Source: Balneolales bacterium (GTDB taxonomy: Bacteria; Bacteroidota; Rhodothermia; Balneolales; Natronogracilivirgulaceae). From it: 64,000 nucleotides of DNA. Shown piece by piece: positions 8,456-50,144 of this stretch. The stretch lies in the NCBI GenBank assembly GCA_007132975.1, contig SLNO01000016.1:1600-65599 (forward strand), written 5' to 3'. Position numbers and translations under genes: made by a program. The first letter of the stretch is position 1; each line of letters begins with the position of its first letter. The notes below the pieces were generated by a model. That model made no database searches and was not told where the DNA came from. It saw nothing but the letters and a program-made list of their open reading frames with translations.

Positions 8456-8647
8456 AATTATTTAGATCCTGTTACAGGGCAATAATGGTATTCGGGCAAG
8501 ATACAAAAAAATGACAGCTTGCCTAAGCATCGTGACCCGGACCGGCTTTCTTGATGTTTTGCGCATTCCGTTTCAGGTCGTATTTTTAGCGAAATGCGGC
8601 GCCCGGCCAATACCGGCCAGTCCGAACCAAACAAATCCTCCCTCCAC

Positions 8648-16473: not shown

Positions 16474-16842
16474 ATGGCAGGCAACAGAGAACTGAGCGAG
16501 CAGAATTTCAGGAGGATCAGCTGGATCAACATCCTGCTGACTCCTCCCCTCCTTATACTTTTCTCCTGGCCTTATGCCGTCATCGGTCTGTGGTTTGATT
16601 TTTACGAAATGTGGTTATACGCGGGAACCTTCCTTTTTGCCTTCCCGTTGACTTTGACGATACTGCACGGCCATATAACGATAGCATTGGGTGCTTTGCA
16701 ACGGTCACACTATCACGAATGGCTGGTGCGCCGAAAGTGGGGATACGGATTTTGGATCCGGCCCTTCTTTTTCAGTACCCGTTTCCGATTGATTCTTTTA
16801 ATTATTAGCTTGGTAATGTTGATTACAGGCATATTTTTTTGA
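16474..16842 (+). CDS. small membrane protein, unknown function
   Basis: 122 aa counted from MAGNRELSEQ, with 3-4 hydrophobic helices. The upstream part of the track ORF (16348-) overlaps the M28 gene and was trimmed. Confidence 0.45.
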   Translation: MAGNRELSEQNFRRISWINILLTPPLLILFSWPYAVIGLWFDFYEMWLYAGTFLFAFPLTLTILHGHITIALGALQRSHYHEWLVRRKWGYGFWIRPFFFSTRFRLILLIISLVMLITGIFF

Positions 16843-31301: not shown

Positions 31302-31429
31302 GAGTGAAATGGGAAATACAAAAAAACTACTTGATTTTAAGCAATTGTATTCTTTACATTTGCTGATTATACACTGTTATTTCGTTAGAATAACCGGACT
31401 GTAAAATACAAAATAGATAAGTATAAAGA

Positions 31430-31516
31430 ATGACGATGTTCCACCATTTCTGCATTGTAACCATGATGTGTTGTATGCCTGGCATTGCTGATGGTGGTGG
31501 TCTCTCCGTGACTTAG
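31430..31516 (+). CDS. candidate Cys/Met-rich leader peptide (28 codons) of the cysI operon
   Basis: My own translation; it falls below the ORF-track cutoff. The peptide is MTMFHHFCIVTMMCCMPGIADGGGLSVT*, with 3 Cys and 5 Met. The inverted repeat CCACCAT/ATGGTGG brackets the Cys/Met codons. Confidence 0.5.
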   Translation: MTMFHHFCIVTMMCCMPGIADGGGLSVT

Positions 31517-31544
31517 TCACACACGTTATAGTGTTTGAATTTAG

Positions 31545-31580
31545 AAGCCCGCTGCCATCCTGGTTGCGGGCTTTTTTTTT
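31545..31580 (+). terminator. intrinsic terminator (attenuator candidate) upstream of cysI
   Basis: AAGCCCGCTGCCATCCTGGTTGCGGGC followed by T9. There is no upstream plus-strand gene for it to terminate. Confidence 0.75.
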
Positions 31581-31751: not shown

Positions 31752-33440
31752 ATGACAAAAAAAAGCAGCAAGGTGGAACTGATCAAAGAGGAGAGCGGTA
31801 ATCTCCGGGGGGATCTGGCCACGCAACTTCACAACGGTCAAAACTATTTCGACAAGAACGCAATACAGATCCTGAAATTTCATGGTATTTACCAGCAGGA
31901 TGACCGGGATCTGCGTCGTATCAAAGGTCGGGACAAAGAGTGGAGTTTCATGATACGCAGCCGCATTCCCGGCGGTGGATTAACGGCCACGCAATATCTG
32001 GCCCATGACCGGCTGGCCGATACATACGCAAATGGAACCATTCGCCTGACAACCCGCCAGACAATCCAGTTCCATGGAGTGGTCAGGGGTGACCTTTCAT
32101 CCACGCTCCGGGAACTGCATGATGAGATGATCATTGCCCTTGGCGCTTGTGGCGACATTGTCCGCAATGTGATGTGCTGCCCGGCGCCGGCTGGATCCAG
32201 GACAGACCACGTCATTCAGGAGTATGCACAAAAGCTTTCCGACCATCTGCTCCCGCGCAGCAAGGCTTATTACGAAATATGGATCGACGGGGAAAAAGCC
32301 GGGTCCAGCCAGCAGAACGACCCTGAGCATGAACCGCTGTACGGGAAAAACTACCTCCCCCGCAAATTCAAGATCGGTATTGCCTGGCCCGGTGACAACT
32401 GTGTCGACGTTTTCACGCACGATATCGGACTGGTTGCCACAATAAATGACCATGACGAACTGCAGGGCTTCACCATTCTTGTTGGCGGAGGCATGGGCAT
32501 GAACCACAAGAAGAAAGAGACCTTCCCGCGCCTGGCCGACCCCCTTGCCTGGGTGCCGCATGAGGAGGTCATCGATGTGGTGACGCACATTGTGGCGATA
32601 CAGCGGGATTACGGCGACCGGGAAAACAGGAAGCATGCCCGATTCAAATACCTGATTGATGAGTGGGGCATCCCGAAGTTCAAAAAGGAACTGGAGGATA
32701 GGCTCGGTTACCGCCTTGCACCACCTCTTGACCTCGGCGACATGCGTCCGGAACTGCACCTTGGCTGGAACCGCCAGGCTGACGGACGCTGGTATCTGGG
32801 AATATCCGTGGAAAACGGACGCATCAAGGATACGCCGGAAATCCGGCTCAAGACCGGTCTGCGGGAGATCATCAGGCGATTCGGGACGGATGTCCGGCTC
32901 ACTCCCAACCAGGACATCCTACTGACAAACATTTCAGAGGAAGATCAGCATGCCATTGAGCAGATGATCCGCGAACACAACATACCGCACGATTACACGC
33001 TCAGCAATGCCCGGAGATACTCAATGGCCTGCCCTGCCCTGCCCACTTGCGGTTTGGCAGTTGCCGAGTCGGAGCGGGTCTTTCCAGGGATCATCCGCGA
33101 ACTGGAACAGGTCCTGGAGGAGTTGGGTCTGGACAAGGAAGTCATCACATTCCGGATGACCGGCTGCCCGAACGGATGCGCGCGCCCCTACGTGGCCGAT
33201 ATCGGGTTCGTGGGACACTCCATGAATAAATATGACATTTTCATCGGCGGTGACCCTGCCGGAAGAAGGCTCAACAGCCTGTATCGCGGGCTTGTACCGC
33301 TGGAGGAACTGGTTGAAACCGTGAAAACCCTTCTGGTTCAGTATCAAAATGAAAGGTACGAAGGCGAAAAATTCGGTGACTACGTCGCCCGTGTCAACCT
33401 TGTTGACGAAACCAACCAGATTAGCGAGGCAGGCTCATGA
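31752..33440 (+). CDS. cysI: assimilatory sulfite reductase hemoprotein (CysI/Sir type)
   Basis: N-terminus MTKKSSKVELIKEESGNLRG matches the CysI start pattern as I recall it. Siroheme/4Fe-4S cysteines MACPALPTCGLA and MTGCPNGCARP. The track ORF starts at a TTG at 31656. Confidence 0.92.
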   Translation: MTKKSSKVELIKEESGNLRGDLATQLHNGQNYFDKNAIQILKFHGIYQQDDRDLRRIKGRDKEWSFMIRSRIPGGGLTATQYLAHDRLADTYANGTIRLTTRQTIQFHGVVRGDLSSTLRELHDEMIIALGACGDIVRNVMCCPAPAGSRTDHVIQEYAQKLSDHLLPRSKAYYEIWIDGEKAGSSQQNDPEHEPLYGKNYLPRKFKIGIAWPGDNCVDVFTHDIGLVATINDHDELQGFTILVGGGMGMNHKKKETFPRLADPLAWVPHEEVIDVVTHIVAIQRDYGDRENRKHARFKYLIDEWGIPKFKKELEDRLGYRLAPPLDLGDMRPELHLGWNRQADGRWYLGISVENGRIKDTPEIRLKTGLREIIRRFGTDVRLTPNQDILLTNISEEDQHAIEQMIREHNIPHDYTLSNARRYSMACPALPTCGLAVAESERVFPGIIRELEQVLEELGLDKEVITFRMTGCPNGCARPYVADIGFVGHSMNKYDIFIGGDPAGRRLNSLYRGLVPLEELVETVKTLLVQYQNERYEGEKFGDYVARVNLVDETNQISEAGS

Positions 33441-34435
33441 TCCACAAAATAGATGCTCGCACCCATCCTAATTCCGCGGACAGATCCATTGAATCGCCGG
33501 GCGGGCTGCAAACGGTCACCTTGACATTCAAAAAGAACAAACCTGCGCCGGGCACGGTATACATTGCAGGTGCAGGTCCGGGCGATCCGGAACTGATGAC
33601 GGTCAAAGCCATGCGGGTGCTGCAGTCGGCCGATGTGGTTGTTTTCGACCGGCTGGTTAATCCGTTGCTTTTGAATGAGATTCGTCCCGATGCACGGAAA
33701 ATCAGTGTCGGCAAGAAACCCGGCAGAGCCTCGGTTTCACAAACCGAGATCAACCGGATACTGGTAACGGAAGCCCGCATGGGGCAGACCGTGCTTCGGC
33801 TGAAAGGCGGCGATCCGTTTGTCTTCGGCCGGGGCGGCGAGGAGTGCCTTGAACTTGCCGCGGAGGGCATCCCATTCGAAGTAATACCAGGAATCAGCAG
33901 CGTGACGGGTGCCACCGCCTATGCCGGAATCCCCCTTACTATGCGCAACCTGGCCACCGGCTTCAGTGTAATAAGTGGCCATCTGCATCCAGACAGCCCG
34001 GAATACGACTGGCAGGCGCTCTCTCAAACCCCGACCCTGGTTATCCTGATGGGAGCTCGCAACCTGAACCTCATCATCGATCGGCTCACGATCCACGGTA
34101 AAGACGGCGATACGCCCATTGCACTGATACACGAAGGTACCACGGCTCGGCAGCAGGTTACGACCGGCAGACTGTCGGATATCCACACGAAGTGTTCTGA
34201 AGTGCGTTCCCCTGTGCTGATTGTCATCGGCGAAGTGGTCCGTTTTCGTGAAGAAATAGCCTGGTTCCAGCCGGGAACGATTACCGAAGATATCCGCGAT
34301 GCTCCGGAAGCCAGTTACCCGAAACAGGTCAAGGCCACGGTTGATGCCGCTGTTCAGGCACGGGCCGTATCCTCAGCTCAGGCGAAGTCCATCCATCCAA
34401 CTAAACACACCTCAAAAACTGCAGCATCCCCATGA
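33437..34435 (+). CDS. cobA: uroporphyrinogen-III C-methyltransferase (SUMT) with C-terminal extension
   Basis: VYIAGAGPGDPELMTVKAMRVLQSADVVVFDRLV and RLKGGDPFVFGRGGEE. Its ATG overlaps the cysI stop (ATGA at 33437-33440). Confidence 0.92.
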   Translation: MIHKIDARTHPNSADRSIESPGGLQTVTLTFKKNKPAPGTVYIAGAGPGDPELMTVKAMRVLQSADVVVFDRLVNPLLLNEIRPDARKISVGKKPGRASVSQTEINRILVTEARMGQTVLRLKGGDPFVFGRGGEECLELAAEGIPFEVIPGISSVTGATAYAGIPLTMRNLATGFSVISGHLHPDSPEYDWQALSQTPTLVILMGARNLNLIIDRLTIHGKDGDTPIALIHEGTTARQQVTTGRLSDIHTKCSEVRSPVLIVIGEVVRFREEIAWFQPGTITEDIRDAPEASYPKQVKATVDAAVQARAVSSAQAKSIHPTKHTSKTAASP

Positions 34436-34547
34436 AAAAAGTTCATGAAGTGCCACGAACACGGTCGCATCCCTCTGGCACACATGGGAATGATCACATC
34501 CTGCCAAGTGAAACCACTCTAACCAAAAAATTCAAAGTTTTAAATTC

Positions 34548-35261
34548 ATGCAATTGAACGACCGGCTGATCAGCAATCTCAACGATGAATACAAGGGCAG
34601 CGACCCGGCGCGGATCTTGGAATGGGCCGTCAAAACATTCGGTGAAGACGCGGTTTTGTCCACCGGATTCGGGGCCTCGGGCATTGTCCTGATGCACCAG
34701 CTGTCGATCGTGCGTCCGGGCGCACCGGTGTTTTATCTGGATACGGACCTCCTTTTCGACGAAACCTATGAGCTGATCGAACGGATCCGGGAGCGCCTGG
34801 ATATCCGGCTGTTCCGTGTCAGTCCAGAACACACCCTCGATCAGCAGACTGCGGAATTCGGTGAAAATCTGTGGGAAACCCGGCCCGACCAGTGCTGCCA
34901 TATCCGCAAAGTGCTGCCCTTGAAGAAGTTCCTCAGCGACCGCAAAGCGTGGATCACTGCCATCCGCAGGGACCAGTCCGCAACACGAAAAAACACCCCG
35001 ATTTTTCAACAGGATCACTGGCTGGATGTTCTCAAGGTGTGTCCGCTGGCCGGCTGGACCGAGGACAAGATATGGGACTATCTGAACGTCAACCGACTTC
35101 CTTACAACGAGCTGCACGACCGGGGCTACCCGAGCATCGGATGCCGGCCCTGTACCCGTCCGGCAGCAACCAACGGGGACCTTCGTGCCGGAAGATGGTC
35201 GGGCACGGCCAAGACAGAGTGCGGTCTTCACAATCGAATCATTCAACCCACGGATCAATGA
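34548..35261 (+). CDS. cysH: (phospho)adenylylsulfate reductase, Fe-S cluster (APS-reductase-like) type
   Basis: Contains the C-terminal catalytic KTECGLH motif. Also carries the cluster cysteines CC (PDQCCHIRKVLPL) and CxxC (SIGCRPCT). Confidence 0.9.
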   Translation: MQLNDRLISNLNDEYKGSDPARILEWAVKTFGEDAVLSTGFGASGIVLMHQLSIVRPGAPVFYLDTDLLFDETYELIERIRERLDIRLFRVSPEHTLDQQTAEFGENLWETRPDQCCHIRKVLPLKKFLSDRKAWITAIRRDQSATRKNTPIFQQDHWLDVLKVCPLAGWTEDKIWDYLNVNRLPYNELHDRGYPSIGCRPCTRPAATNGDLRAGRWSGTAKTECGLHNRIIQPTDQ

Positions 35262-35947
35262 CATTCTACCCGGTATATCTCACTCGCCTGGACCGGAAGA
35301 CAGTAGTACTCCTCGGAGGCAACCATGAAGCGGAGCGAAAAGCCGTTGAACTCCTCTCATTCGGCGCCAAAGTGCATCTCATCAGCCCGCGGATTACCCT
35401 TGCGCTCAGACAGCTCCATGAGCAGGGAAAATTCCGTTGGACTCCAAGGGAATACCGCTACGGGGATCTGGTGGATGCCGGTTTTGCCGTGGCGGCCGAC
35501 TATTCTCCGGAGACGGCGCGGGAATTTGCCAGGGAGGCGGAAGACCGCAACATTCTGGTGAACGTCATGGACAACATGCCGCTGTCCGATTCGGCCTTCG
35601 GCTCCGTTGTGCGGCAGGGCAAACTGACCGTTTCATTTTCGACCGGCGGTCTGGCACCCGCCCTGGCAGTCCGGCTGAAGGAACGGTTTGAGCGTGAGCT
35701 GGACGATGCCTACGGCCGGTTCCTGGACCTGGCCGGCATGCTGCGTCCGGCCATCATGGAGCACATCGAAGACGGGGAACTGCGTAAAAAGAAGTGGTAT
35801 GAATGGGTGGATTCCGGAACCATTTCAGCGCTTCGCGAAGGCGACGAGCAGCAGGCCATGGCTATCACTGCGGATATCTGGGGGGACGAGGTCATGCAAC
35901 GGGCAGGAATCCCGGCCGCGAAATACAGCTCCGGGCATTCCTTGTAA
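35258..35947 (+). CDS. precorrin-2 dehydrogenase / sirohydrochlorin ferrochelatase (CysG N-terminal domain / SirC-Met8 type)
   Basis: 229 aa starting MTFYPVYLTRLDRKTVVLLGGNHEAERK, with NILVNVMD and LTVSFSTGGLAPALAVRLK. Its ATG overlaps the cysH stop (ATGA at 35258-35261). The first 129 codons of the track ORF (34871-) are an out-of-frame overlap with cysH. Confidence 0.8.
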   Translation: MTFYPVYLTRLDRKTVVLLGGNHEAERKAVELLSFGAKVHLISPRITLALRQLHEQGKFRWTPREYRYGDLVDAGFAVAADYSPETAREFAREAEDRNILVNVMDNMPLSDSAFGSVVRQGKLTVSFSTGGLAPALAVRLKERFERELDDAYGRFLDLAGMLRPAIMEHIEDGELRKKKWYEWVDSGTISALREGDEQQAMAITADIWGDEVMQRAGIPAAKYSSGHSL

Positions 35948-36005: not shown

Positions 36006-37394
36006 TCAGCGGTGCCATTTCCATCTGATGCCGGACCATACCCCAAGCACCATGGCCAGAGTGAATACCCAACCCGACAAGGCAAATGCTGAAATGCCTG
36101 ACAGTGTAGTCCCAATGGTGCATCCCAGGGAGATCATAGCCCCTAAACCCAACAGTACGCCGCCGGCAAAACCCTTCAGCGCTTTCGTGGCGGTCAGCCG
36201 ACTGAGCCTGAACCGGCCGGAAAGCAAAGCGGCAATCAGGGAGCCGGCTACCAGAGCAACTACGAATATCCCGTTGCCAGTCAGCACTTCAGGAGCTGCG
36301 GCGGTGCTGCACCCTGCAAATCCATCCAGTCCCTCCAGCCGGTCGGGCAGCAGATCGAACCGGTTGCCGAGTTGCCGGGAATAACGGCCCAGTTCGGCAG
36401 TTACACCGAGCGGTTCCACACGCAGATAGGCGATCATGGACAGCAGCCCGACCACAACCCCGCCGACCCACGTCGGCCAAAGCTCCACAAAAACCCGGCT
36501 CCACACACTGGAAAGTGACAACGTGCCACTGTCTGGCGAAACAGGCTGACCGCCCCCGGAATATGACGGGTCACTGCAATCCGCAAATGCCGATGATTTT
36601 TGAGTAGATGGATGCTCAGATTGCTTTGAAGCCAAATCCGACTGGGTGGGTGCATCGTCAAAATGGGTGGATGCGGCCGATGTCTGGCCAGTTGCCGCAG
36701 TAGCCTGCCCGAATGCCGCCGGATCACAGCCTGTATCGCCGGACGGTTTTGCTTCCGGATCCGGCCGGAACCGGATCAGAAGCCACAGCTTGAGTGATAG
36801 CAGCACTGCCAGTTGTACCAGGGTCCATACGGCATAGCCGCCATACTCCGGCAGCCATATGACCGGTGAGGTGGAAATGGTCGCGACATAGAGCCGGTTC
36901 CAGACCATGAACCCCAGAATGAAGCCGGCCGCAGACCCGGCCAGGGCAAACGGTGCAACGCTGTACCCCTCGCCAAGCCGGTAGAGGTGTGCGCTGATGC
37001 ACGATCCGGAAAGCGCCATCCCCCACCCGAACAGCAAACCGCCAAGGAGCAAATGCCAGCTTACAGGTCCAATGTGCGCATCCTGGGGCAGATATCCAGC
37101 TGACGGATCGGCAATCCAGTTTCCAAAAAGCACGACATAACCGATACTCCCAACAAGCAGTGCTGCTAACAGCCCGGCTGCCGGCCTGCCATCGCCAAAT
37201 TCAAACAGATCGCGCAACACACAAAAAAAGCAGAACCGGGATCTTTGCAGCACCAGTCCGAAAAGGGCACCCGTCACAATCAGGAACGGAGCTCTTGAGC
37301 CATGCTGCCCGCTGCTGCCGGCAAGGTACCAGAAACCGACAAGCAGCAAGAGCATGGTGGCAGCGCCGATATGGCGCCATATTGAAACATTCAT
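36006..37394 (-). CDS. fused double YeeE/YedE-family sulfur-compound (thiosulfate-type) permease
   Basis: Two YeeE/YedE halves, with GWGMALSGSCISAH in the first and GLGAMISLGCTIG in the second. They are joined by a ~110-aa low-complexity linker. Confidence 0.8.
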   Translation of the reverse strand: MNVSIWRHIGAATMLLLLVGFWYLAGSSGQHGSRAPFLIVTGALFGLVLQRSRFCFFCVLRDLFEFGDGRPAAGLLAALLVGSIGYVVLFGNWIADPSAGYLPQDAHIGPVSWHLLLGGLLFGWGMALSGSCISAHLYRLGEGYSVAPFALAGSAAGFILGFMVWNRLYVATISTSPVIWLPEYGGYAVWTLVQLAVLLSLKLWLLIRFRPDPEAKPSGDTGCDPAAFGQATAATGQTSAASTHFDDAPTQSDLASKQSEHPSTQKSSAFADCSDPSYSGGGQPVSPDSGTLSLSSVWSRVFVELWPTWVGGVVVGLLSMIAYLRVEPLGVTAELGRYSRQLGNRFDLLPDRLEGLDGFAGCSTAAAPEVLTGNGIFVVALVAGSLIAALLSGRFRLSRLTATKALKGFAGGVLLGLGAMISLGCTIGTTLSGISAFALSGWVFTLAMVLGVWSGIRWKWHR

Positions 37395-37415
37395 GAATCA
37401 GTCCGGATTTTGCGA

Positions 37416-38330
37416 TTATTTACCGGTCCAGACCGTTCCCGCGGGATTGTCGATAGGAACGCCCACTGCGTTGCCGTATTCCGTCCACGATCCGTCGTAG
37501 TTCCTTGTTTCGTATCCCAGAAGGAAGTGAAGGGCGAACCAGGTGTGGCTGGACCGCTCCCCGATCCGGCAGTAGGTAATCACCGGCTTGCTGCCGTCGA
37601 TACCCTTTTCGGCATAGATCTTCCGTATCTGCTCCCTTGGCAGGAACGTGCCATCCTGCGGATTGACGATTTCACCCCAGGGCACATTAACGGCACCGGG
37701 TATGTGACCGGCCCTGATGGCCAGCTCCTGGATCCCCTCCGGAGCAATCACACGTCCCTCGTACTCCGCTCTCGAACGGATGTCAATGAGCGCGCCGGGT
37801 TGATCCTCCTTGACCACGGCAAGCACATCCTGAAGATTGGCACGAAGATGATCGTTGATCTGTGTGACGCGGTAGTCGGTGCGGGTGTAAGACGCCGGTC
37901 GCGAACTGAGTGGCCGGCGCTCGCGCTCCCACTTATCGCGGCCTCCATCCAGGATTTTGATGTTATCATGTCCGTAGATGGTGAAGACCCAGGCACCCCA
38001 GGCAGCAAACCAGTTGTTGTGGTCGCCGTACAGGACAACGGTGGTCTCATTGGAAATGCCGCTTCCGGACAACAGTTCCGCGAATTTTTCCGGTGAAACA
38101 ATATCGCGGCGAACCGGATCCACAAGGTCCGTATGCCAGCGGAAGTTGACTGCGCCGGGAATGTGCCCGCGTTCGAACTTTCCGGGCTCCACACTTACTT
38201 CTACAAACCTGACATCCGGGTTGTTGAGGTTCTGGGCCGCCCAATCCGTGGATACGACCGGCTCTGATGGCCGGGCCTGAATGTTCACGGCAAATAGGAG
38301 AGCGATAATGAGTATGCTGTATTTTTTCAT
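37416..38330 (-). CDS. exported tandem-rhodanese thiosulfate sulfurtransferase
   Basis: Signal peptide MKKYSILIIALLFAVNIQA, two rhodanese domains, and active-site loop YCRIGERSSHTW. Confidence 0.88.
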   Translation of the reverse strand: MKKYSILIIALLFAVNIQARPSEPVVSTDWAAQNLNNPDVRFVEVSVEPGKFERGHIPGAVNFRWHTDLVDPVRRDIVSPEKFAELLSGSGISNETTVVLYGDHNNWFAAWGAWVFTIYGHDNIKILDGGRDKWERERRPLSSRPASYTRTDYRVTQINDHLRANLQDVLAVVKEDQPGALIDIRSRAEYEGRVIAPEGIQELAIRAGHIPGAVNVPWGEIVNPQDGTFLPREQIRKIYAEKGIDGSKPVITYCRIGERSSHTWFALHFLLGYETRNYDGSWTEYGNAVGVPIDNPAGTVWTGK

Positions 38331-38484
38331 CTGTTTTTTTCTGGTTGGTTGTTGTTTCTATTTGTTGATTGGTTGGTTGCTTGTGATTCTTGTTTTGTCT
38401 GATGTTGCCAAACATTTTTGTTGGCGAGTGGTTTGTTGGTGATTGATTGAAATTGTTTCAAGGAGCTGCCGATATCCTCTCCGA

Positions 38485-40428
38485 TCAGATGTTATCTTTG
38501 AAAACCCGCTTCATGATCTGCGCGACGGCCTCATCCACCCCGATCCTGTCGGTTTTGATGGACAACGTCTCCGGGCCGGACAACTCGTATTCGGCATCGT
38601 AGCCGGTCAGTGACTTTATTTTCCCCTCCCTGGCTTTGCGGTAAAGTCCCTTGGGGTCACGCTGTTGACGCGTTTCCGGATCGCAGTGCAGATGGACCTC
38701 GGTGAACGCTCCGTCCGGGAACAGCGATGCGGCACGACTCCGGTCCCTGCGGTTCGGCGAGACGAACGAGCAGATCACCACATTTCCGTGCTCGTAAAAC
38801 AGCCGGGCCACTTCCGCTGCCCTTCGAATGTTTTCGGTGCGGTCGGCAGTTGAGAAACCGAGATCGCCGTTGAGGCCGTGCCGAACCTGGTCCCCGTCCA
38901 GCAGCATGGTCTTGATGCCGGCATCCCAGAGCTTCCGCTCAAGCGCCCGTCCGATGGTCGTTTTTCCGGCGCCGGATACCCCGGTCAGCCAGATCACCCG
39001 GGCGCGATGTCCGTTCCTTTTTTCGCGCTCTTCACGCCCGATGTTCCACGGATCCCAGAAAGTATTCGGACTTTTGATTGCGGATTCCGCCGATTGCGCG
39101 CTGTCCCGCTTCGCCGCCGTTTCAGCCCGGATCATTCCCGCCGCCGCCGTCACATTGGTCTCCGGATCCACCAGGATGAAACTGCCTGTGGCGCTGTTTT
39201 TCCTGTAAGGGTCCACAAAAACGGGCCGCGCCGTCTCAATGCTGATCCGGCCGATTTCGTTGAGTGCCAGCGTGGAGGCCGGGTCGCGGCTCAGCGAATC
39301 CACATCGATGCGATGGTGGACCGCCCTGACGACTGCCGCGGTGGTGTTCGTGGTGTGCATGAGCACGTAGTTGCGGCCAATCTGCAGGGCGGTGCCGTTC
39401 ATCCAGCACAGATCGGCCTCAAACCGGGTTGTCACGGCGGGTGGATGGTGGCCGTGCACGATCATGTCGCCGCGGCTCAGATCCATCTCGTCGCCAAGGC
39501 GCAGGATCACCGAATCTCCGGTAGAAGCCTGGCCGACCGGCCCATCGGGCGTATCAATGGCTTTGATGGTGGTTTTCTGGCCCGCCGGCAGCAGCATGAC
39601 CTCATCATTCCGTTGCACGCTGCCCGATACCACCCTGCCGGCAAAACCGCGATAGTCCTGATCGGGACGTATGACATACTGCACCGGGAAACGGAATCCG
39701 CCCTGTGTTTTACGTGCATCCACCCGGACATGCTCCAGATGGTGCAGCAGCGTGGGTCCGTCGTACCACGGCATCGACTCCGAACTGTTGACGATATTGT
39801 CCCCCTTGAGAGCGGATATGGGGATGCTGGTGACTTCCTCCACATCCAGATGCTTCGAAAATGTGCGAAATTCCTCCACAATCTCTTCAAAACGATCACG
39901 GGAATAATCCACAAGGTCCATTTTGTTCACTGCAAGGACCAGCCGGGGGATTTGCAGCAGGGAGGATATGAACGCGTGACGGCGGCTTTGGGTGAGCACG
40001 CCCTTGCGCGCATCGATCAGGATGATGGCCAGATCGGCTGTGGAAGCCCCGGTGACCATGTTGCGGGTGTACTGCTCGTGGCCGGGTGTGTCGGCAATGA
40101 TGAATTTCCGCCTGGGGGTTGCGAAATAGCGGTAAGCCACGTCAATGGTAATCCCCTGCTCCCTTTCCGCCCGAAGTCCGTCGGTGAGAAGCGCCAGGTT
40201 GACCGCCTCGCCGCGATTGACGGCCGTCTGCTCAAGTGCATCCAGCTGATCCTCGAATATGGATTTACTGTCGAACAGAAGCCGGCCAATAAGGGTGCTT
40301 TTGCCGTCATCCACGCTGCCCGCCGTGGTAAAACGGAGCAGGTCCATGGTTTCGCCGGCGGTTTTCTCTTCCGGGTGGATGAGGCCGTCCTGCGGTGCCT
40401 CTGTTGTGCTGTTCTTTGTACTGCTCAC
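38485..40428 (-). CDS. cysNC: bifunctional sulfate adenylyltransferase subunit 1 / adenylylsulfate kinase (CysN-CysC fusion)
   Basis: GTPase motifs GSVDDGKST, DTPGH and NKMD. C-terminal APS kinase P-loop WLTGVSGAGKTT. The track start is a GTG. Confidence 0.93.
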   Translation of the reverse strand: MSSTKNSTTEAPQDGLIHPEEKTAGETMDLLRFTTAGSVDDGKSTLIGRLLFDSKSIFEDQLDALEQTAVNRGEAVNLALLTDGLRAEREQGITIDVAYRYFATPRRKFIIADTPGHEQYTRNMVTGASTADLAIILIDARKGVLTQSRRHAFISSLLQIPRLVLAVNKMDLVDYSRDRFEEIVEEFRTFSKHLDVEEVTSIPISALKGDNIVNSSESMPWYDGPTLLHHLEHVRVDARKTQGGFRFPVQYVIRPDQDYRGFAGRVVSGSVQRNDEVMLLPAGQKTTIKAIDTPDGPVGQASTGDSVILRLGDEMDLSRGDMIVHGHHPPAVTTRFEADLCWMNGTALQIGRNYVLMHTTNTTAAVVRAVHHRIDVDSLSRDPASTLALNEIGRISIETARPVFVDPYRKNSATGSFILVDPETNVTAAAGMIRAETAAKRDSAQSAESAIKSPNTFWDPWNIGREEREKRNGHRARVIWLTGVSGAGKTTIGRALERKLWDAGIKTMLLDGDQVRHGLNGDLGFSTADRTENIRRAAEVARLFYEHGNVVICSFVSPNRRDRSRAASLFPDGAFTEVHLHCDPETRQQRDPKGLYRKAREGKIKSLTGYDAEYELSGPETLSIKTDRIGVDEAVAQIMKRVFKDNI

Positions 40429-40508
40429 TTTTTATCTGGTGTCTTTAGTAGCTGTTTTTGTCTGGATGCCAATCGAGGTGTCTCCCCGGCTTAAAAACAG
40501 GTTCGGAT

Positions 40509-41495
40509 TCAAAAATACCCGGCCTTTTTCCGGTCTTCCATGGCCGCTTCCGATCTTTTGTCATCGTGGCGGTTGCCCCTCTCGGTCACGCGCGCAGCAG
40601 CGACTTCGGCAATGATCTCATCCAGACTGGATGCCACGGAAAGCACGGCCCCTGTGCAGGTTACGTCGCCAATGGTCCGGAAACGGACGATCTTCTCCTC
40701 AGGTTTTTCATCCGGATAGCGGTTGATGAACCCGGAGTCGTCCAGCCATGTGCCCCGCCTGTTGAAGACACGCCGCCTGTGGGAGAAGTAAAGTGATGGT
40801 ATGGGAATCCGCTCGGCGGCAATGTACTGCCAGATATCCATCTCGGTCCAGTTGCTCAGCGGGAACACACGGAAATGCTCGCCCGGGTTCTTTCGTCCGT
40901 TGAAAAGACTCCACAGTTCCGGACGCTGGTTCTTGGGATCCCACTGCCCGAAAGCGTCACGGTGCGAGAAAAAGCGTTCCTTTGCCCGGGCTTTTTCCTC
41001 GTCACGTCGCCCACCGCCCAGTGCGCAGTCCACGTTGTGCTCCTTGAGTGCGTCCAACAGGGTAACCGTCTGCAGGGCGTTGCGGCTGGCCTCCGGACCT
41101 GTCTCCTCCCGCACTTGTCCCCTGTCAATGCTCTCCTGCACGTGAGCCACAATGAGTCGGGCTCCGGTCCTTTCAGCCAGATCGTCCCGGAAGCGGATGG
41201 TTTCGGGGAAATTGTGCCCGGTATCGATGTGCAGCAGTGGAAACGGAAACGGGGCGGGACGAAATGCCTTGAGGGCCAGGTGTACCATCACGATGGAATC
41301 TTTTCCACCGGAAAATAGCAGGACGGGACGTTCAAACTGGGCAGCCACTTCACGCAGCACAAAAATGGCCTCTTCTTCAAGAATGCCAAGGTGTACCGAT
41401 TTTCCCGGGTTGCATCCATCATCCGCAATTTGAGTCGGCCCGAATTGTGTTTTGATCCGGGAAGCGTGCTCAGTCTCAAGCAGTTGCAGTGTCAT
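40509..41495 (-). CDS. cysD: sulfate adenylyltransferase subunit 2
   Basis: PP-loop LLFSGGKDSIVMVHLALKAF. IDTGHNFPE and the remaining sequence resemble CysD. Confidence 0.93.
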   Translation of the reverse strand: MTLQLLETEHASRIKTQFGPTQIADDGCNPGKSVHLGILEEEAIFVLREVAAQFERPVLLFSGGKDSIVMVHLALKAFRPAPFPFPLLHIDTGHNFPETIRFRDDLAERTGARLIVAHVQESIDRGQVREETGPEASRNALQTVTLLDALKEHNVDCALGGGRRDEEKARAKERFFSHRDAFGQWDPKNQRPELWSLFNGRKNPGEHFRVFPLSNWTEMDIWQYIAAERIPIPSLYFSHRRRVFNRRGTWLDDSGFINRYPDEKPEEKIVRFRTIGDVTCTGAVLSVASSLDEIIAEVAAARVTERGNRHDDKRSEAAMEDRKKAGYF

Positions 41496-41613
41496 GTCTG
41501 TTGGTGTTGTTGATTATTGGTGTCTGTATCTGTTATCAGTGGCCATTTCTTTGGGGATGCGTTGCAGGCATGACCCAAATGTTGGCAAACCGATTCGTTG
41601 GTTGAAATTCTGT

Positions 41614-43164
41614 TCATGTCCAGAACCACGCTGCCACGGTTACGGTTACAGTCATGAGGATCAGGGTAACCGGCAGTCCGGCTTTCAGATAGTCGGTGTA
41701 GCGGTACCCGCCGGGTTCCATGACCATCAGGTTGGTCTGATAGCCCACCGGCGACAGAAAGCTGGCCGATGCGGCTACGGCAACAGTCACCCCCACCGCG
41801 TGCGGATCCAGACCGATGGCGGTGGTCGCATGCAGCGCCACCGGCAGCATCAGCACGGCAGCGGCATTGTTTGTGATCAGCTCGGTGAGCAGGTTGGTCG
41901 CCAGGTAGAGTCCGGCCAGCACCGCCAGCACCCCCCAGCGCGACGATTGTTCAAGCAGCAGAGCAGCCGCAGCGGATGCCAGTCCGGTGTTCTCAAGTGC
42001 GGCCCCGATACCGAGCGCTGCCGCAATGACGATCAGCACAGACAAATGGATGGATGGGAGGATACGGGACAATGGCAGCATGCCGGTCGCGATCAAAATG
42101 GCGGCCGTCGCTACAACAGCCATATGGATGGGCGCAATGCCGGTTACCGATATGCCGACCATGGCAATGACCATGGTAAATGTCCATGCCCTGGCTTTTC
42201 TGCCCGGAATCCTGGCGCTGGCTTCATCCTGCACCACTGAGTGCTTTTCAATTTCTGGATTGCCGGCCTGACCGGCATTGTATCCCCCATTGTTCACCCA
42301 TGATACTGGTGGATGCAGCTCCCAGTGGTTAATCCTGCCGTAGCTGCCGGCCCCGGCATATACACCGCTGGGAAATGACGCCGAAACCCCGGGTCCCGAT
42401 CCGGCTGAGGAGTAATCGCCAGTAATTCCGGCTAATGCCAAACTTTCCGGGAGAAGGTAGACACCGGCCGGCACGGCACGCTTGCCAGAATCCGCCCGTT
42501 TTTCAGGATTCGGACCGATCGCAACTGCCGGTGCATCTCCCTTTCTGTCCGGCAACAGGCGGTGCCCGATGAGGGAAAACCAGACCACGACCAGAATGGC
42601 TGCCGGAACGCCCACAAGCGCCAGCTGGAAAAAGTGAAACGGCACATGCCCCCTGTCGGCGAGCATTTCCGATACGATCAGGTTGGTTGATGTACCAAAC
42701 AGTGTAATTACACCCCCGACAATCGCTGCATAGGAGAGTGGAATAAGCAGTTTGGAGGCGGAAATTCCATATTTTCCGGCCCATTGCTGCAACTGCGGGA
42801 ATAGGATGGCGACGATCGGGGTGTTGTTCAGGATGGACGACATGGCCGCGGTGGATCCCATCACCCGGAACAAGACCGAACCGGTTGAGGATGAACCTGG
42901 ACGGTAGAACCGATCGAGGAATGAAAGCAGTCGTACGTGCTGCACGCTTCCGGCAACCAGGAACAGCGCCCCTACCGTAATGACTACCGTGCTCGTGAAA
43001 CCGGCAGCCACATCCACCAGAGAAATGATACCCGGAACAAGCAGCAGGAACAGAGCCGAAACGAACAGCACAGCCGGTCGGGCGGCATTGCCAACCAGTG
43101 CGGCGATCAAGGCCAGGATGATTCCCAGGGCATATAAAGATTTCCAGTCCAGTATGTCGTGCAT
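41614..43164 (-). CDS. SLC13/DASS-family permease (probable sodium:sulfate symporter)
   Basis: 516-aa polytopic protein with a two-fold repeat architecture. A central low-complexity loop occupies the position where many homologues carry TrkA-C domains. It is the first gene of the cysD-cysNC operon. Confidence 0.75.
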   Translation of the reverse strand: MHDILDWKSLYALGIILALIAALVGNAARPAVLFVSALFLLLVPGIISLVDVAAGFTSTVVITVGALFLVAGSVQHVRLLSFLDRFYRPGSSSTGSVLFRVMGSTAAMSSILNNTPIVAILFPQLQQWAGKYGISASKLLIPLSYAAIVGGVITLFGTSTNLIVSEMLADRGHVPFHFFQLALVGVPAAILVVVWFSLIGHRLLPDRKGDAPAVAIGPNPEKRADSGKRAVPAGVYLLPESLALAGITGDYSSAGSGPGVSASFPSGVYAGAGSYGRINHWELHPPVSWVNNGGYNAGQAGNPEIEKHSVVQDEASARIPGRKARAWTFTMVIAMVGISVTGIAPIHMAVVATAAILIATGMLPLSRILPSIHLSVLIVIAAALGIGAALENTGLASAAAALLLEQSSRWGVLAVLAGLYLATNLLTELITNNAAAVLMLPVALHATTAIGLDPHAVGVTVAVAASASFLSPVGYQTNLMVMEPGGYRYTDYLKAGLPVTLILMTVTVTVAAWFWT

Positions 43165-43211: not shown

Positions 43212-43249
43212 AAAAAAAAAGCCCGCTACCAGAACGGCAGCGGGCTTTT
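43212..43249 (-). terminator. intrinsic terminator (attenuator candidate) upstream of the SLC13-cysD-cysNC operon
   Basis: The minus strand reads AAGCCCGCTGCCGTTCTGGTAGCGGGC followed by T9. It is 33/36 identical to the terminator at 31545-31580. Confidence 0.75.
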
Positions 43250-43273
43250 ACATATAAAAGGATCTCAGACGGA

Positions 43274-43363
43274 TCAGTTCATACAACAACCACTGCCGGA
43301 CGGTACAGGCATAGCACAGCACATACAGAAATTGCAGCTATGAACGGCAGTTGTGGTTGTCAT
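43274..43363 (-). CDS. candidate Cys/Met-rich leader peptide (29 codons) of the SLC13-cysD operon
   Basis: My own translation of the minus strand gives MTTTTAVHSCNFCMCCAMPVPSGSGCCMN*, with 6 Cys and 4 Met. The inverted repeat ACAACCACAACTGCCG / CGGCAGTGGTTGTTGT (14/16 bp) brackets the Cys/Met codons. Confidence 0.5.
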   Translation of the reverse strand: MTTTTAVHSCNFCMCCAMPVPSGSGCCMN

Positions 43364-43546
43364 GAAAACGAATTAATTAAGAAAAAATCAGAAGTTTGAG
43401 CGATGCACTATCAGGCACATCTGTTCCGGTTGCCTGGCAACGGTGCTGTAGAACACGGTAACACCTGTGCGGACAAACCAACCAAGGCAAAAGTACATCC
43501 ATCCTGACCCTATGTCAAATAATAATTTTCAGATGCGCCTATTTTC

Positions 43547-45106
43547 TTATATCACCAGCTCAAAAACCCCTCCGCGACGCTCATCACCCGCACCCTGAAA
43601 ACCGTCCGGGCCGCGCATGGCCGAGTGTACACCACCGAAAAACAGGTTGGAACTGCTCCAGAGTTTGTGGTCCGGCCACTCGCTGAGCACCGGTGCCAGT
43701 GCCCCGGGATCAAAGCCACGCTCCACCGAGAGGTGCTCTTTTTCACAGTGGATGCGCGGGCTGCGCGTTGCCTCGTCCAGCGGCATGCCGTAGTCCAGCA
43801 TGTTCAGGATCACCTGGAGGATGGCGGTCCGGATCCGGTTGGATCCGCCAGAGCCGAAAGCCATGACTGCGCCGTCTTTGCGGGTAAGGATGCCGGGGGC
43901 CATCATGGAGGTGATGCGGGTGTCCTCGGGCCAGCGATGGAACCCGCCCGGATGCAGGTCCTCCTCTCCCAGCATGTTGTTGAGCATCACGCCGGTGCCG
44001 GGGATGACGTGACCGCACCCCTCTCCGTTGCTGGTTGTCAGACTGGCGGTGTTGCCACGGGCATCCATGACGCTTATATGCGTGGTGCCGCGCGTGAAGC
44101 GGGCGTAGTCGGACATCTGGCGGCGGTAGGCGGAGAGATGCTCCGGATCGAGGATATCCTCGCCAGGGACCGGCAGGTTGTTGCGCAGCAGATAGTCGAT
44201 GCGCGCCTGGTCGGTGAGCCTCTGCACTTTGGCCAGCCGCTGAAGGTGTCCGGTGGACCCAAAGGGATGCTCGGATGGATCCGCCTCTTCCATCAGTTTC
44301 AGAGCGAAAGCGATGAGGGTGCCACCGGAGCTGGGTGCTGGATTGAAAGCCAGCGAGGCCGCATCCCGATAGGTTATTTCGAGCGGTTTGCGCCGGATGA
44401 CTTCATAGTTCCGGAAGTCCTCAATCGTCAGGTGCCCGCCGGCAGTCCGGCTCATACGGTCCACCTGCTCGGCGATTTCGCCTTTGTAGAAAAGGTCTTC
44501 CCCCTCCAAGGCCAGCACTTCCAGCAAGTCAGCGAGATCTGGTTGGTGCAGCACGTCGCCATCAGCCAGCAGGCCGTTTTCCCGCTCTGGATTGCCGTAA
44601 ATATCAAGGGAAGCCCGGGTGGACCGGTAAATCGGCGAGATGATATCGAGTATGTAGGCCTGGAAATGGTTCAGGGCCACACCACTGCGGGCCAGCCCGA
44701 TCGCCGGTTCGGCCAGTTGTTTCATGGACATGCGGCACAGGTCGCGCTGGATGGCGAAAAGTCCGCGCACGGTGCCCGGAGCGCCGGCCGAACCCATGCC
44801 AATGTGGAATTCCTGAAAGGTCTCCCCAAAATCGGCCGAGATGGGATAAAATTCAACTTGGTCTGGCGGACGCCTTTTGCGCGGTGTCTGGATGAAAAAA
44901 TCGTAGAGTGTCTGGCTGGCGTCCGGGGTGCGGGCCATCAGGAATCCGCCACCGCCAGGTGAGGAGAGTACCGGCTCGGTCACGCAGGCAGCCAGATGCG
45001 CGGCTACCACAGCGTCAAATGCGTTACCGCCGCTTTTGAGGATATCGGCAGCTACACGAGCTGTCTGTTCGTGCCCCGCTGCAATAACGCCAGAATTCTG
45101 TTTCAC
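43547..45106 (-). CDS. gamma-glutamyltransferase family protein (cytoplasmic type, no signal peptide seen)
   Basis: Nucleophile motif TTHISVMDARGNTASLTTSNG. C-terminal GAGDERRGG. Confidence 0.88.
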   Translation of the reverse strand: MKQNSGVIAAGHEQTARVAADILKSGGNAFDAVVAAHLAACVTEPVLSSPGGGGFLMARTPDASQTLYDFFIQTPRKRRPPDQVEFYPISADFGETFQEFHIGMGSAGAPGTVRGLFAIQRDLCRMSMKQLAEPAIGLARSGVALNHFQAYILDIISPIYRSTRASLDIYGNPERENGLLADGDVLHQPDLADLLEVLALEGEDLFYKGEIAEQVDRMSRTAGGHLTIEDFRNYEVIRRKPLEITYRDAASLAFNPAPSSGGTLIAFALKLMEEADPSEHPFGSTGHLQRLAKVQRLTDQARIDYLLRNNLPVPGEDILDPEHLSAYRRQMSDYARFTRGTTHISVMDARGNTASLTTSNGEGCGHVIPGTGVMLNNMLGEEDLHPGGFHRWPEDTRITSMMAPGILTRKDGAVMAFGSGGSNRIRTAILQVILNMLDYGMPLDEATRSPRIHCEKEHLSVERGFDPGALAPVLSEWPDHKLWSSSNLFFGGVHSAMRGPDGFQGAGDERRGGVFELVI

Positions 45107-50067: not shown

Positions 50068-50072
50068 TCTAG

Positions 50073-50144
<72 letters not shown>

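Follow-up and report, generated by a model that had tools for sequence, protein, structure and literature searches.

Does a short open reading frame (sORF) rich in cysteine and methionine codons, followed by a hairpin and a run of T, regulate the sulfate uptake and activation operon that begins directly behind it? The question arises at positions 43212 to 43363, minus strand, of a 64,000-nucleotide stretch of contig SLNO01000016.1 (GenBank assembly GCA_007132975.1, a Balneolales bacterium); that whole stretch is the window of our analysis. The original prediction proposed a Cys/Met-sensing leader with mutually exclusive helices in front of the genes for an SLC13-type permease, cysD, cysNC, a rhodanese and yeeE, a proposal that conservation and compensatory base changes in related genomes support. 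Judging from the sequence, we consider it likely that the element is a classical ribosome-mediated (leader-peptide) terminator/antiterminator attenuator of this operon, one that reads the charging of tRNA-Cys and probably that of tRNA-Met as well.

Anatomy of the leader

From the promoter-like element to the terminator, the leader comprises the following parts:

43488..43519, minus strand: promoter-like element, TTTGACA (43519-43513), a 17-nt spacer (N17) and TACTTTTG (43495-43488; matches TAnnTTTG), from sequence reading and conservation
43364..43483, minus strand: predicted 5' untranslated leader of ~120 nt, with two hairpins and then an AU-rich unstructured stretch before the ATG, from folding
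43274..43363, minus strand: leader sORF MTTTTAVHSCNFCMCCAMPVPSGSGCCMN, stop codon included, from the reading frame and homologues at 10 other permease-linked loci
43345..43360, minus strand: region 1, the anti-antiterminator 5' arm ACAACCACAACUGCCG (DNA ACAACCACAACTGCCG), paired with region 2 and the bases 3' of it in the minimum free energy (MFE) fold
43310..43336, minus strand: candidate regulatory codon cluster, codons 10-18 (C-N-F-C-M-C-C-A-M), in the loop between regions 1 and 2, from translation and the conserved core
43290..43299, minus strand: region 2, CCGGCAGUGG, with region 1 or the terminator 5' arm as alternative partners, from duplex, helix and covariation analyses
43235..43243, minus strand: region 3, CCGCUGCCG, the terminator 5' arm and antiterminator partner of region 2, from 9 contiguous bp with region 2
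43212..43249, minus strand: intrinsic terminator (regions 3:4), a 15-bp stem and T9 (43220-43212), from a terminator scan and the MFE fold

The ATG at 43363 opens a frame of 29 codons that stops at 43276-43274, 110 nt ahead of the permease ATG and on the same strand. Its peptide has 6 Cys and 4 Met with the initiator counted, that is, 3 internal Met in 28 residues, and at the Cys frequency of the window (0.7%) the chance of at least 6 Cys per 28 residues is P ~4e-8. In the 19 leaders that we collected from Balneolales (see below), 17.7% of residues are Cys and 12.8% internal Met; the genes of the window have 0.7% and 1.8%, which makes Cys 25-fold enriched in leader sORFs. A second Cys/Met group, CCM at codons 26-28 (43283-43289, minus strand), lies directly 3' of region 2; it is variable, reading CS, CP or CA in close relatives and being absent from sir-type leaders, and the pairing of regions 1 and 2 (ACAAC with GUUGU) may have produced it incidentally.

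Three nested helices are conserved in this arrangement: a helix around the Cys/Met codons (region 1:2), the antiterminator (region 2:3) and the terminator (region 3:4). In nucleotides of the window ORF, region 1 spans 4-19, the Cys/Met cluster 28-54, region 2 65-74, the stop codon 88-90 and region 3 121-129. The cluster ends at least 11 nt ahead of region 2, and of 13 leaders compared, 10 (the window's included) have 14 nt between the 3' end of region 2 and the stop codon. Region 1, a segment in the first codons, finds its partner in the 3' arm CGGCAGTGGTTGTTGT (43298-43283), with a duplex energy of -22.6 kcal/mol (z = -3.9) in the window. For the antiterminator, CGGCAGUGG (43298-43290) matches CCGCUGCCG (43243-43235) over 9 contiguous bp. 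The terminator reads AAAAGCCCGCTGCC-GTTCT-GGTAGCGGGCTTTT in DNA and AAAAGCCCGCUGCC-GUUCU-GGUAGCGGGCUUUU, then U9, in RNA; 8 of its 15 stem pairs are G-C, and its loop measures 3 nt in the terminator scan or 5 nt in the MFE fold. It starts 24 nt past the sORF stop, and its T-run ends 47 nt before the permease ATG (43164). The whole leader folds better than its shuffles (MFE z = -3.3), and the MFE structure consists of the region 1:2 helix around the Cys/Met codons together with the terminator. The original prediction had described the 29-codon frame with its Cys and Met counts, the 5' arm (43360-43345) and its 3' arm, the terminator with T9 at its distances from stop and ATG, and a CGGCAG/CTGCCG complementarity; all of these are present, both arms are paired in the MFE leader fold, and the complementarity is longer than the 6 bp then noted.

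A module conserved and restricted to sulfur operons in Balneolales

Loci for comparison were taken around homologues of the permease and the sulfite reductase, with the addition of one metagenome pattern scan; winA is the module under study, winB its twin at 31430 and L085b the second module of locus L085. The nearest named homologues of both proteins all belong to Balneolales, an order that NCBI taxonomy places in the phylum Balneolota, within the Bacteroidota/Chlorobiota group. Modules of sORF plus terminator stand directly 5' of sulfur-assimilation operons, on the same strand, in ~17 Balneolales genomes or contigs covering the families Cyclonatronaceae and Balneolaceae, and the operons behind them are of the permease-cysD-cysNC, sir-cobA-cysH-sirC or rhodanese-yeeE type. 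Eleven modules are permease-linked (winA, L001-L004, L081, L083-L085, L092 and L094), and others precede sir, cobA or rhodanese operons (winB, L085b, L087, three in L088, L089, L090, L091 and L093). The original prediction had reckoned with the possibility that related genomes have no such short frame; comparing the regions upstream of the orthologues gave the opposite result, and all Balneolales loci examined in which a permease starts a cysD-cysNC operon have a homologous sORF and terminator directly upstream. The leaders outside the window are:

L083, permease-linked: leader peptide MTTSTAVHSCNFCMCCAMPVPSGSGCSMI
L084, permease-linked: leader peptide MTTITAFYSNTFCMCCAMPVPSGSGCPMI
L001, permease-linked: leader peptide MTTTTAIHNMLLCMCCNMPDDTGGGCPMC
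L002, permease-linked: leader peptide MNLPAITAIRYNMHTAMCMCCMMPPTEGSGCCMC
L003, permease-linked: leader peptide ..HNMHAIICMCCLMPPPEGSGCAMC
L081, permease-linked: leader peptide ..ICAAMCMCCMMPPPDGSGCSMC
L004, permease-linked: leader peptide MTHPNPYIVNACFCMCCTMPLRGECGCCMC
L085 (Natronogracilivirga saccharolytica), permease-linked, leader at 5719-5808: leader peptide MTTTSTSSSNCMCMCCMKPLINGSGCCMC
L092, permease-linked: leader peptide MTTNPIHSHICLCMCCMMPRWRGSGCCML
L094, permease-linked: leader peptide MTTTFSNTCFCQCMCCILPQWKGSGCCMR
L087, before a sir operon: leader peptide MTTSHLHICPAMPMCCMPGALNGSGLSVT, the winB homologue
L088: three modules, two before sir and one before rhodanese-YeeE
L089 (Rhodohalobacter sp. 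SW132), before a rhodanese-sir operon, leader at 8814-8912: leader peptide MNSQVLNLNIVMMCSPMAMMCCMCMHNDSGLK
L090 (Gracilimonas-like), before a rhodanese-sir operon: leader peptide ..AMNCCCMCMCMMCNTPTVVDVMC
L091 (Fodinibius salsisoli), before a rhodanese-sir operon, leader at 8861-8977: leader peptide ..MPVAMCCMCMCCCMHMPGGSGTDMRK
L093, before a single rhodanese-sir-cobA-cysH-sirC-permease-cysD-cysNC operon: leader peptide ..ACACLCFCMCPMLPAAGCGFVVER
L085b, minus strand, before cobA-cysH-sirC: leader peptide ..AKCMCCYIHLNMAAVVT

Permease-type leaders keep the core C-M-C-C-x-M-P, with UGU and UGC varying synonymously, inside a longer common peptide motif, C-M-C-C-x-M-P-x5-G-C-x-M; Pro is frequent directly after the Cys/Met cluster. 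The sir- and rhodanese-type peptides have little mutual likeness beyond their Cys/Met content. From leader to leader the order of Cys and Met changes (CMCC, MMCC, CCMC, CCCMCMCMMC) and UGU and UGC interchange; codon identity is preserved rather than a fixed sequence. An exact look-up of 8 leader peptides in a collection of 15 billion proteins found none of them, and the peptides are unannotated.

The promoter-like element lies between the stop of ggt (43547) and the leader. Its second half matches TAnnTTTG, the promoter consensus of Bacteroidetes, and the element as a whole fits a sigma-70-like pattern too; transcription would start near 43483. The same motif occurs in the same place at L083, L084, L085 and L094, and a relaxed form lies within 220 nt upstream of 12 of the 19 leaders, against 0.018 expected. 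From the end of the motif to the sORF ATG there are 124 nt in the window and 26-124 nt in the relatives that have it. The two hairpins of the 5' untranslated region are conserved only in L083 and L084, where covariation evidence is weak (3 sequences), and other Balneolales leaders have untranslated regions of only about 25-80 nt; the extra hairpins could serve stability, pausing or a second input.

Upstream, the leader adjoins ggt (43547-45106, minus strand), a gamma-glutamyltranspeptidase (GGT) gene with no terminator of its own before the leader. It stands directly ahead of the leader and permease operon in at least 5 genomes (the window, L084, L085/L086, L092 and L094), and read-through from it must therefore stop at the hairpin or enter the operon, which would suit a simpler account: that the hairpin is only the intrinsic terminator of ggt, the sORF a chance frame, and the operon promoter downstream of the hairpin. 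The original prediction doubted this account, and we find it barely conceivable. A conserved promoter-like motif follows the ggt stop and precedes the leader, which argues that the hairpin is not merely a ggt terminator; the same module stands behind unrelated or divergent upstream genes at winB, L087, L089, L090, L091 and L093; the sORF is conserved and strongly Cys-enriched; region 2 covaries with the terminator arm; and between the T-run and the permease ATG there are only the 47 nt given above, with no promoter-like match. Transcripts that run on from ggt probably end at the attenuator too, or would be gated by it, an extra use of the hairpin rather than its explanation. GGT itself could supply cysteine from glutathione.

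A covariance model built from 15 leaders (R1) has members only in Balneolales loci, and on 76 permease loci from other orders and phyla it gave no significant match (E-value below 0.1). A Cys/Met-dense sORF was likewise not found in the 400-600 nt upstream of ~24 cysD/cysNC-permease loci of Rhodothermales, Salinibacteraceae, Chitinophagales and Flavobacteriia, which is not proof of absence, because some of these operons may start upstream of the DNA examined; Rfam gave no match in 8 of them. The metagenome scan with the core pattern TGYATGTGYTGYNNNATGCC-N16-GGNTGY returned two contigs only, from one sample set (SL_3KL_010_SED...), one of them identical to L003.

Several neighbouring elements resemble the module in part. 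One contig, L088, carries three or four modules at 9282-9720 (plus strand) and 16571-16660 (minus strand), two of them in tandem before sir; the second of this pair, L088b, a 72-codon Cys-rich ORF that ends FCCPSHCCLMCCMPVSIA, has an atypical hairpin and no region 2:3 complementarity (z = +0.5), and the family statistics do not include it. Locus L091 has a weak covariance-model match (29.8 bits) at 4309-4413 (plus strand), ahead of a second rhodanese gene; it comprises a terminator, GCCCACUAUC..., and a region 2 to match, GAUAGUGG, but a Cys-rich ORF is not obvious, and the copy may have decayed or may work without translation. The same locus, from Fodinibius salsisoli, has at 8502-8609 (minus strand) an sORF ending CTCCCCCCS, with 8 Cys and no Met enrichment, before a PALP-JAB-ThiS-ThiF operon of CysM/CysO type; the hairpin after it lacks a U-run, and it may be a different, perhaps translational, Cys attenuator like those of mycobacteria. 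Three Rhodothermales loci (L034 653-799, L044 610-744 and L060 831-875) share an ORF-like stretch, MTDACCPRSC..., ~300 nt upstream of cysD, in which Rfam gave no family match and which might be a different regulatory element of the same pathway.

Competing helices and the proposed attenuation

Nearly every family member has a canonical intrinsic terminator with a run of 6-10 U, and over 15 leaders 96.9% of terminator cells are paired, with compensatory changes at 3 pairs. The region 1:2 helix enclosing the Cys/Met codons occurs in 17 of 17 leaders (-12.5 to -22.6 kcal/mol, all z-scores negative, mean near -2), with arm sequences that differ between clades. Region 2:3 duplexes have energies of -15 to -25 kcal/mol, and for 17 of 18 leaders the z-score relative to dinucleotide shuffles lies between -1.8 and -4.9; 16 of 17 have an ungapped helix of 8-12 contiguous bp, which often extends into the terminator loop. 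In a gap-free realignment of sequences cut just after region 3 (A3), the paired share of region 2:3 cells is 87%, and shifting the partner by 1-3 columns lowers it to 29-63%; the covariation score is 0.281, a value reached by 2 of 500 shuffles, against 0.201 in the shuffles. The first loop-proximal pair of A3 is AU in 5, UA in 5 and CG in 4 sequences, and another column has UG, CG and UA. (An earlier MAFFT alignment of full leaders, A2, misplaced the loop gaps and shifted L089, and was unusable for antiterminator pair counts.) The two divergent terminators, CGCUCUCC in L004 and CCCGCUAUC in L089, are matched by correspondingly altered regions 2, GGAGAGUG and GAUAGCGGG, each of which has its own terminator as its best partner in a cross-comparison. 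We regard the region 2:3 covariation as supportive, not overwhelming.

The region 2 core, GGCAGUGG, also bears on what the conserved peptide means. The residues G-S-G are the translation of region 2 (GGY AGU GG), and L090 reads its region-2 motif, GGUAGUGG, in a different frame, as TVVD instead of GSG, so that the conservation of region 2 reflects an RNA constraint and not a peptide constraint. This matters for the idea that the unit is an independent small gene, encoding a functional Cys-rich micropeptide (for example, one that binds metal or sulfur) or a trans-acting small RNA, which is merely co-located with the operon. The peptide motif shared by permease-type leaders, together with a promoter-like motif and strong terminator of its own, is what such a gene would have, and Sinorhizobium is known to have attenuator RNAs and leader peptides that act in trans (PMC6614838, PMC7298713). 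RNA pairing nevertheless accounts for the G-S-G conservation, the sir- and rhodanese-type peptides share little besides Cys and Met, the module is always immediately 5' of a sulfur-assimilation operon on the same strand, and an antiterminator would be purposeless in a stand-alone gene. We hold a stand-alone gene to be highly unlikely; the leader may have a trans role on top of its cis role.

As a cis-acting attenuator the leader would work as follows. Its own promoter, downstream of ggt, would start the transcript, and after ~120 nt a ribosome would initiate on the 29-codon sORF, in which region 1 is followed by the Cys/Met cluster (C-x-x-C-M-C-C-x-M) and then by region 2. With Cys-tRNA scarce, and probably with Met-tRNA scarce too, the ribosome would stall on the cluster, in the loop between regions 1 and 2, and block their pairing. 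Region 2 (CCGGCAGUGG) would then remain free to pair with the terminator 5' arm (CCGCUGCCG) once this is transcribed, and the 2:3 helix would preclude the terminator and allow RNA polymerase to read into permease-cysD-cysNC-rhodanese-yeeE. With sulfur amino acids plentiful, the ribosome would reach the stop codon 14 nt past region 2 and mask region 2, whereupon the 15-bp terminator with T9 would form and transcription would end at ~43212; with no translation, 1:2 would pair first and the terminator would form again. The anatomy, its conservation and covariation and its confinement to sulfur operons can be read from the sequences; that the sORF is translated, that ribosomes stall on it, how efficiently transcription terminates and whether it is Cys or Met that matters are what we infer from them. 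Folds computed with stretches of the RNA masked in place of a ribosome agree with this scheme. With the Cys/Met cluster occupied, region 2 stays free and pairs with region 3 as soon as the latter has been made; with the stop codon occupied, the 3' half of region 2 is hidden and the 3:4 helix forms. Unmasked and at full length, the RNA has 1:2 plus 3:4 as its MFE structure.

Several observations weigh against this mechanism. The region 1:2 z-scores are weak (|z| ~1.3 or less) in 7 of 17 leaders. The covariation is modest, with most antiterminator columns invariant, and because the sequences are mutually related the shuffle control overstates its significance. When the RNA is cut before the terminator 3' arm and no ribosome is placed on it, MFE prefers 2:3 over 1:2 in 3 of 4 leaders (winA, winB and L004), so that default termination of untranslated RNA would rest on the order of folding, a kinetic matter, and not on stability. 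A ribosome stalled at the second CCM group would mask region 2 and favour termination, counter to induction. No Shine-Dalgarno sequence is evident before the sORF ATG, which leaves its translation a matter of inference only; initiation without one would be usual if this lineage initiates like Bacteroidota. Lastly, what the Met codons contribute is not separable from constraints at the RNA level, and we give even odds to their contributing alongside the Cys codons.

Alternation between terminator and antiterminator by itself needs no ribosome, and the missing Shine-Dalgarno sequence and the two further conserved 5' hairpins of the window's clade would also fit an attenuator independent of translation, in which one helix is stabilised by a bound molecule, be it a small ligand such as a sulfur metabolite or a protein such as one that binds UGU, as in a riboswitch or a PyrR/TRAP-type system; a PyrR-site match was seen below threshold (27.7 bits against a gathering score of 54). 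What is conserved, though, is an ORF: it has a start codon, its stop keeps a fixed distance to region 2, and its Cys/Met codons, for exactly the two sulfur amino acids, vary in order and synonymously. The extra 5' hairpins are missing from most family members. Across the whole window at gathering thresholds, Rfam 15 found tRNA only, an unrelated tRNA-Asn (GTT) at 50072-50144 on the minus strand that is also the sole ARAGORN match. Permissive local scans of the leaders with Rfam 15 gave at best 20-28 bits against thresholds of 41-59, and these matches are driven by the terminator; Rfam leader families scored 15-22 bits against gathering scores of 41-55, and there was no SAM riboswitch or T-box match. 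Taken together, we think control of this kind quite improbable here, and return to the ribosome-mediated attenuator.

The twin module and relation to known leaders

The genes behind the leader were identified by a Pfam scan, which upholds the original assignments, that of ggt included:

36006..43164, minus strand: permease-cysD-cysNC-rhodanese-YeeE operon
41614-43164, minus strand: SLC13/CitMHS (Na-sulfate-symporter-type) putative sulfate permease
40509-41495, minus strand: cysD
38485-40428, minus strand: cysNC
37416-38330, minus strand: two-domain rhodanese
36006-37394, minus strand: YeeE/YedE sulfur transporter

The twin module that the original prediction placed at 31430 exists, and the terminators of winA and winB are nearly identical; their shared pattern has 2 matches in the window and 0 in shuffles. 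Both leaders also contain UGU..UAUGCCUG and GGUGGU, and winB scores 76 bits against R1, being itself among the 15 training leaders. The twin and its operon consist of:

31331..31580, plus strand: twin module B (winB), promoter-like motif to terminator, from sequence, fold, pattern match and R1 score
31331-31362, plus strand: promoter-like TTGA..TACATTTG
31430-31516, plus strand: sORF MTMFHHFCIVTMMCCMPGIADGGGLSVT
31490-31500, plus strand: region 2, GAUGGUGGUGG
31549-31559, plus strand: region 3, CCGCUGCCAUC
31545-31580, plus strand: terminator AAGCCCGCUGCCAUCCUGGUUGCGGGC + T9, its T-run 171 nt before the sir start
31752..35261, plus strand: sir-cobA-cysH operon, from the Pfam scan
31752-33440, plus strand: sulfite reductase hemoprotein (sir), true start 31752, 562 amino acids
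33437-34435, plus strand: uroporphyrinogen methylase, cobA/cysG-like
34548-35261, plus strand: PAPS/APS reductase cysH (PAPS_reduct)

With cysH on the plus strand, the sir operon (plus) and the cysDN operon (minus) converge at about 35.3-36.0 kb. The gene order of the window's permease operon recurs in L084 and its convergent part in L087. A 256-amino-acid minus-strand ORF at 34494-35264, overlapping cysH, has no Pfam match.

The twin at 31430-31580 would act on sir-cobA-cysH as winA would on its operon, in which case both halves of assimilatory sulfate reduction would answer to one signal. Since Cys and Met both derive from the sulfide that the pathway makes, a leader that senses two amino acids is physiologically sensible. 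Taken together, the targets of the family cover the complete pathway of assimilatory sulfate reduction, divided over at least two operons in a genome. A wider reading, to which we would give somewhat less than an even chance, is that one multivalent 'ribulon' governs this pathway throughout Balneolales (uptake, activation, reduction, siroheme supply, and the rhodanese and YeeE sulfur carriers), with 2-4 paralogous leaders per genome reading tRNA-Cys and tRNA-Met charging in place of a CysB/CymR-type factor.

Leader-peptide attenuation is textbook knowledge for trp, his, leu, thr, ilv and phe, and multivalent leaders are familiar from thr (Thr and Ile) and ilv (Ile, Leu and Val), a parallel to the two-amino-acid sensing proposed here. 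Like the enterobacterial leaders of trp, his, leu, thr, ilvGMEDA and pheA, those of Balneolales have a short leader rich in codons for the end product, mutually exclusive 1:2, 2:3 and 3:4 helices, a U-run terminator shortly ahead of the first structural gene, and a stop codon at a distance from region 2 at which a ribosome that terminates there would cover that region. They differ in having no sequence relation to them, in their Cys/Met codons, in a target that is inorganic sulfate uptake and reduction, and in their Balneolales host; the regulatory codons lie in the loop between regions 1 and 2 and not inside region 1, no Shine-Dalgarno sequence is present, and the promoter-like motif fits TAnnTTTG. 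S-box/SAM riboswitches and T-box elements of Firmicutes also place Cys/Met genes under premature termination through competing helices; unlike the leaders described here, they sense S-adenosylmethionine or uncharged tRNA by RNA binding, without a leader ORF.

Closer in codon content are the poly-Cys sORFs of mycobacteria (the 'Cys ribulon'; Canestrari et al., 10.1101/834739), which are leaderless, act on translation by exposing a hidden ribosome-binding site and have no intrinsic terminator; that 2020 paper stated that attenuation for cysteine mediated by upstream ORFs (uORFs) was previously undescribed. Cys-rich leader peptides without terminators had been predicted in Actinobacteria (Seliverstov et al. 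2005, PMC1262725). Our leaders share with the mycobacterial ones Cys-rich short ORFs before cysteine-metabolism operons, several loci per genome and stalling at Cys codons as the presumed sensor, and differ in their 5' leaders of about 25-125 nt (an estimate from sequence only), canonical terminator, covarying antiterminator and Met co-enrichment, which is not a feature there. The likeness raises the possibility that stalling here exposes the permease start region and that the hairpin is no terminator. Experiments in Mycobacterium smegmatis have established translational control by Cys-codon sORFs (10.1101/834739), and in Fodinibius L091 a poly-Cys sORF with no T-run terminator stands before a CysM/CysO-type operon; almost all members of our family, in contrast, have canonical terminators with 6-10 U, the permease start lies 47 nt past the T-run and outside the hairpin, and the sir start of module B is 171 nt downstream. 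Translational control of this type seems to us extremely unlikely for winA, and transcription attenuation remains the preferred reading.

A terminator-type case has been predicted by Brewer et al. 2021 (PMC8632094): uORFC-8-2, a motif ahead of cysS in Rhodobacterales, would be a ribosome-mediated transcription attenuator, with tandem Cys codons in a stem and a terminal U-run terminator. It has two Cys codons only, near position 14-15, and no Met enrichment, and it regulates a cysteinyl-tRNA synthetase in Alphaproteobacteria, whereas the genes here are permease-cysD-cysNC and the taxon Balneolales; no sequence similarity was detected (no Rfam match at threshold). The tandem Cys of the window at codons 15-16 is a coincidental likeness. 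The literature that we searched describes no such leader for Balneolales or Bacteroidota, nor any before sulfate-assimilation genes, and it gives no earlier account of the regulation of sulfur metabolism in Balneolales. What we describe is a new family within a well-known mechanism, distinguished by its dual Cys and Met codon signal, its targets and its host lineage.

Leader-peptide attenuation has hardly been described for sulfur amino acids, and the predicted cysS leader is the only terminator-type Cys leader in the literature searched. If our reading is true, the module would be a clear terminator-type Cys-plus-Met attenuator over inorganic sulfate assimilation and a first regulatory handle on Balneolales sulfur metabolism. 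It would provide a compact motif for annotating sulfur genes, for example the SLC13/CitMHS permease, rhodanese and YeeE as members of the sulfate regulon, as well as a candidate entry for RNA family databases and a natural dual-input sensor. Should the wider 'ribulon' also hold, it would demonstrate tight transcription-translation coupling in a lineage that apparently initiates without Shine-Dalgarno pairing, and the near-identical regions 2 and 3 of paralogous leaders within one genome would let released leader RNAs act on each other's nascent transcripts.

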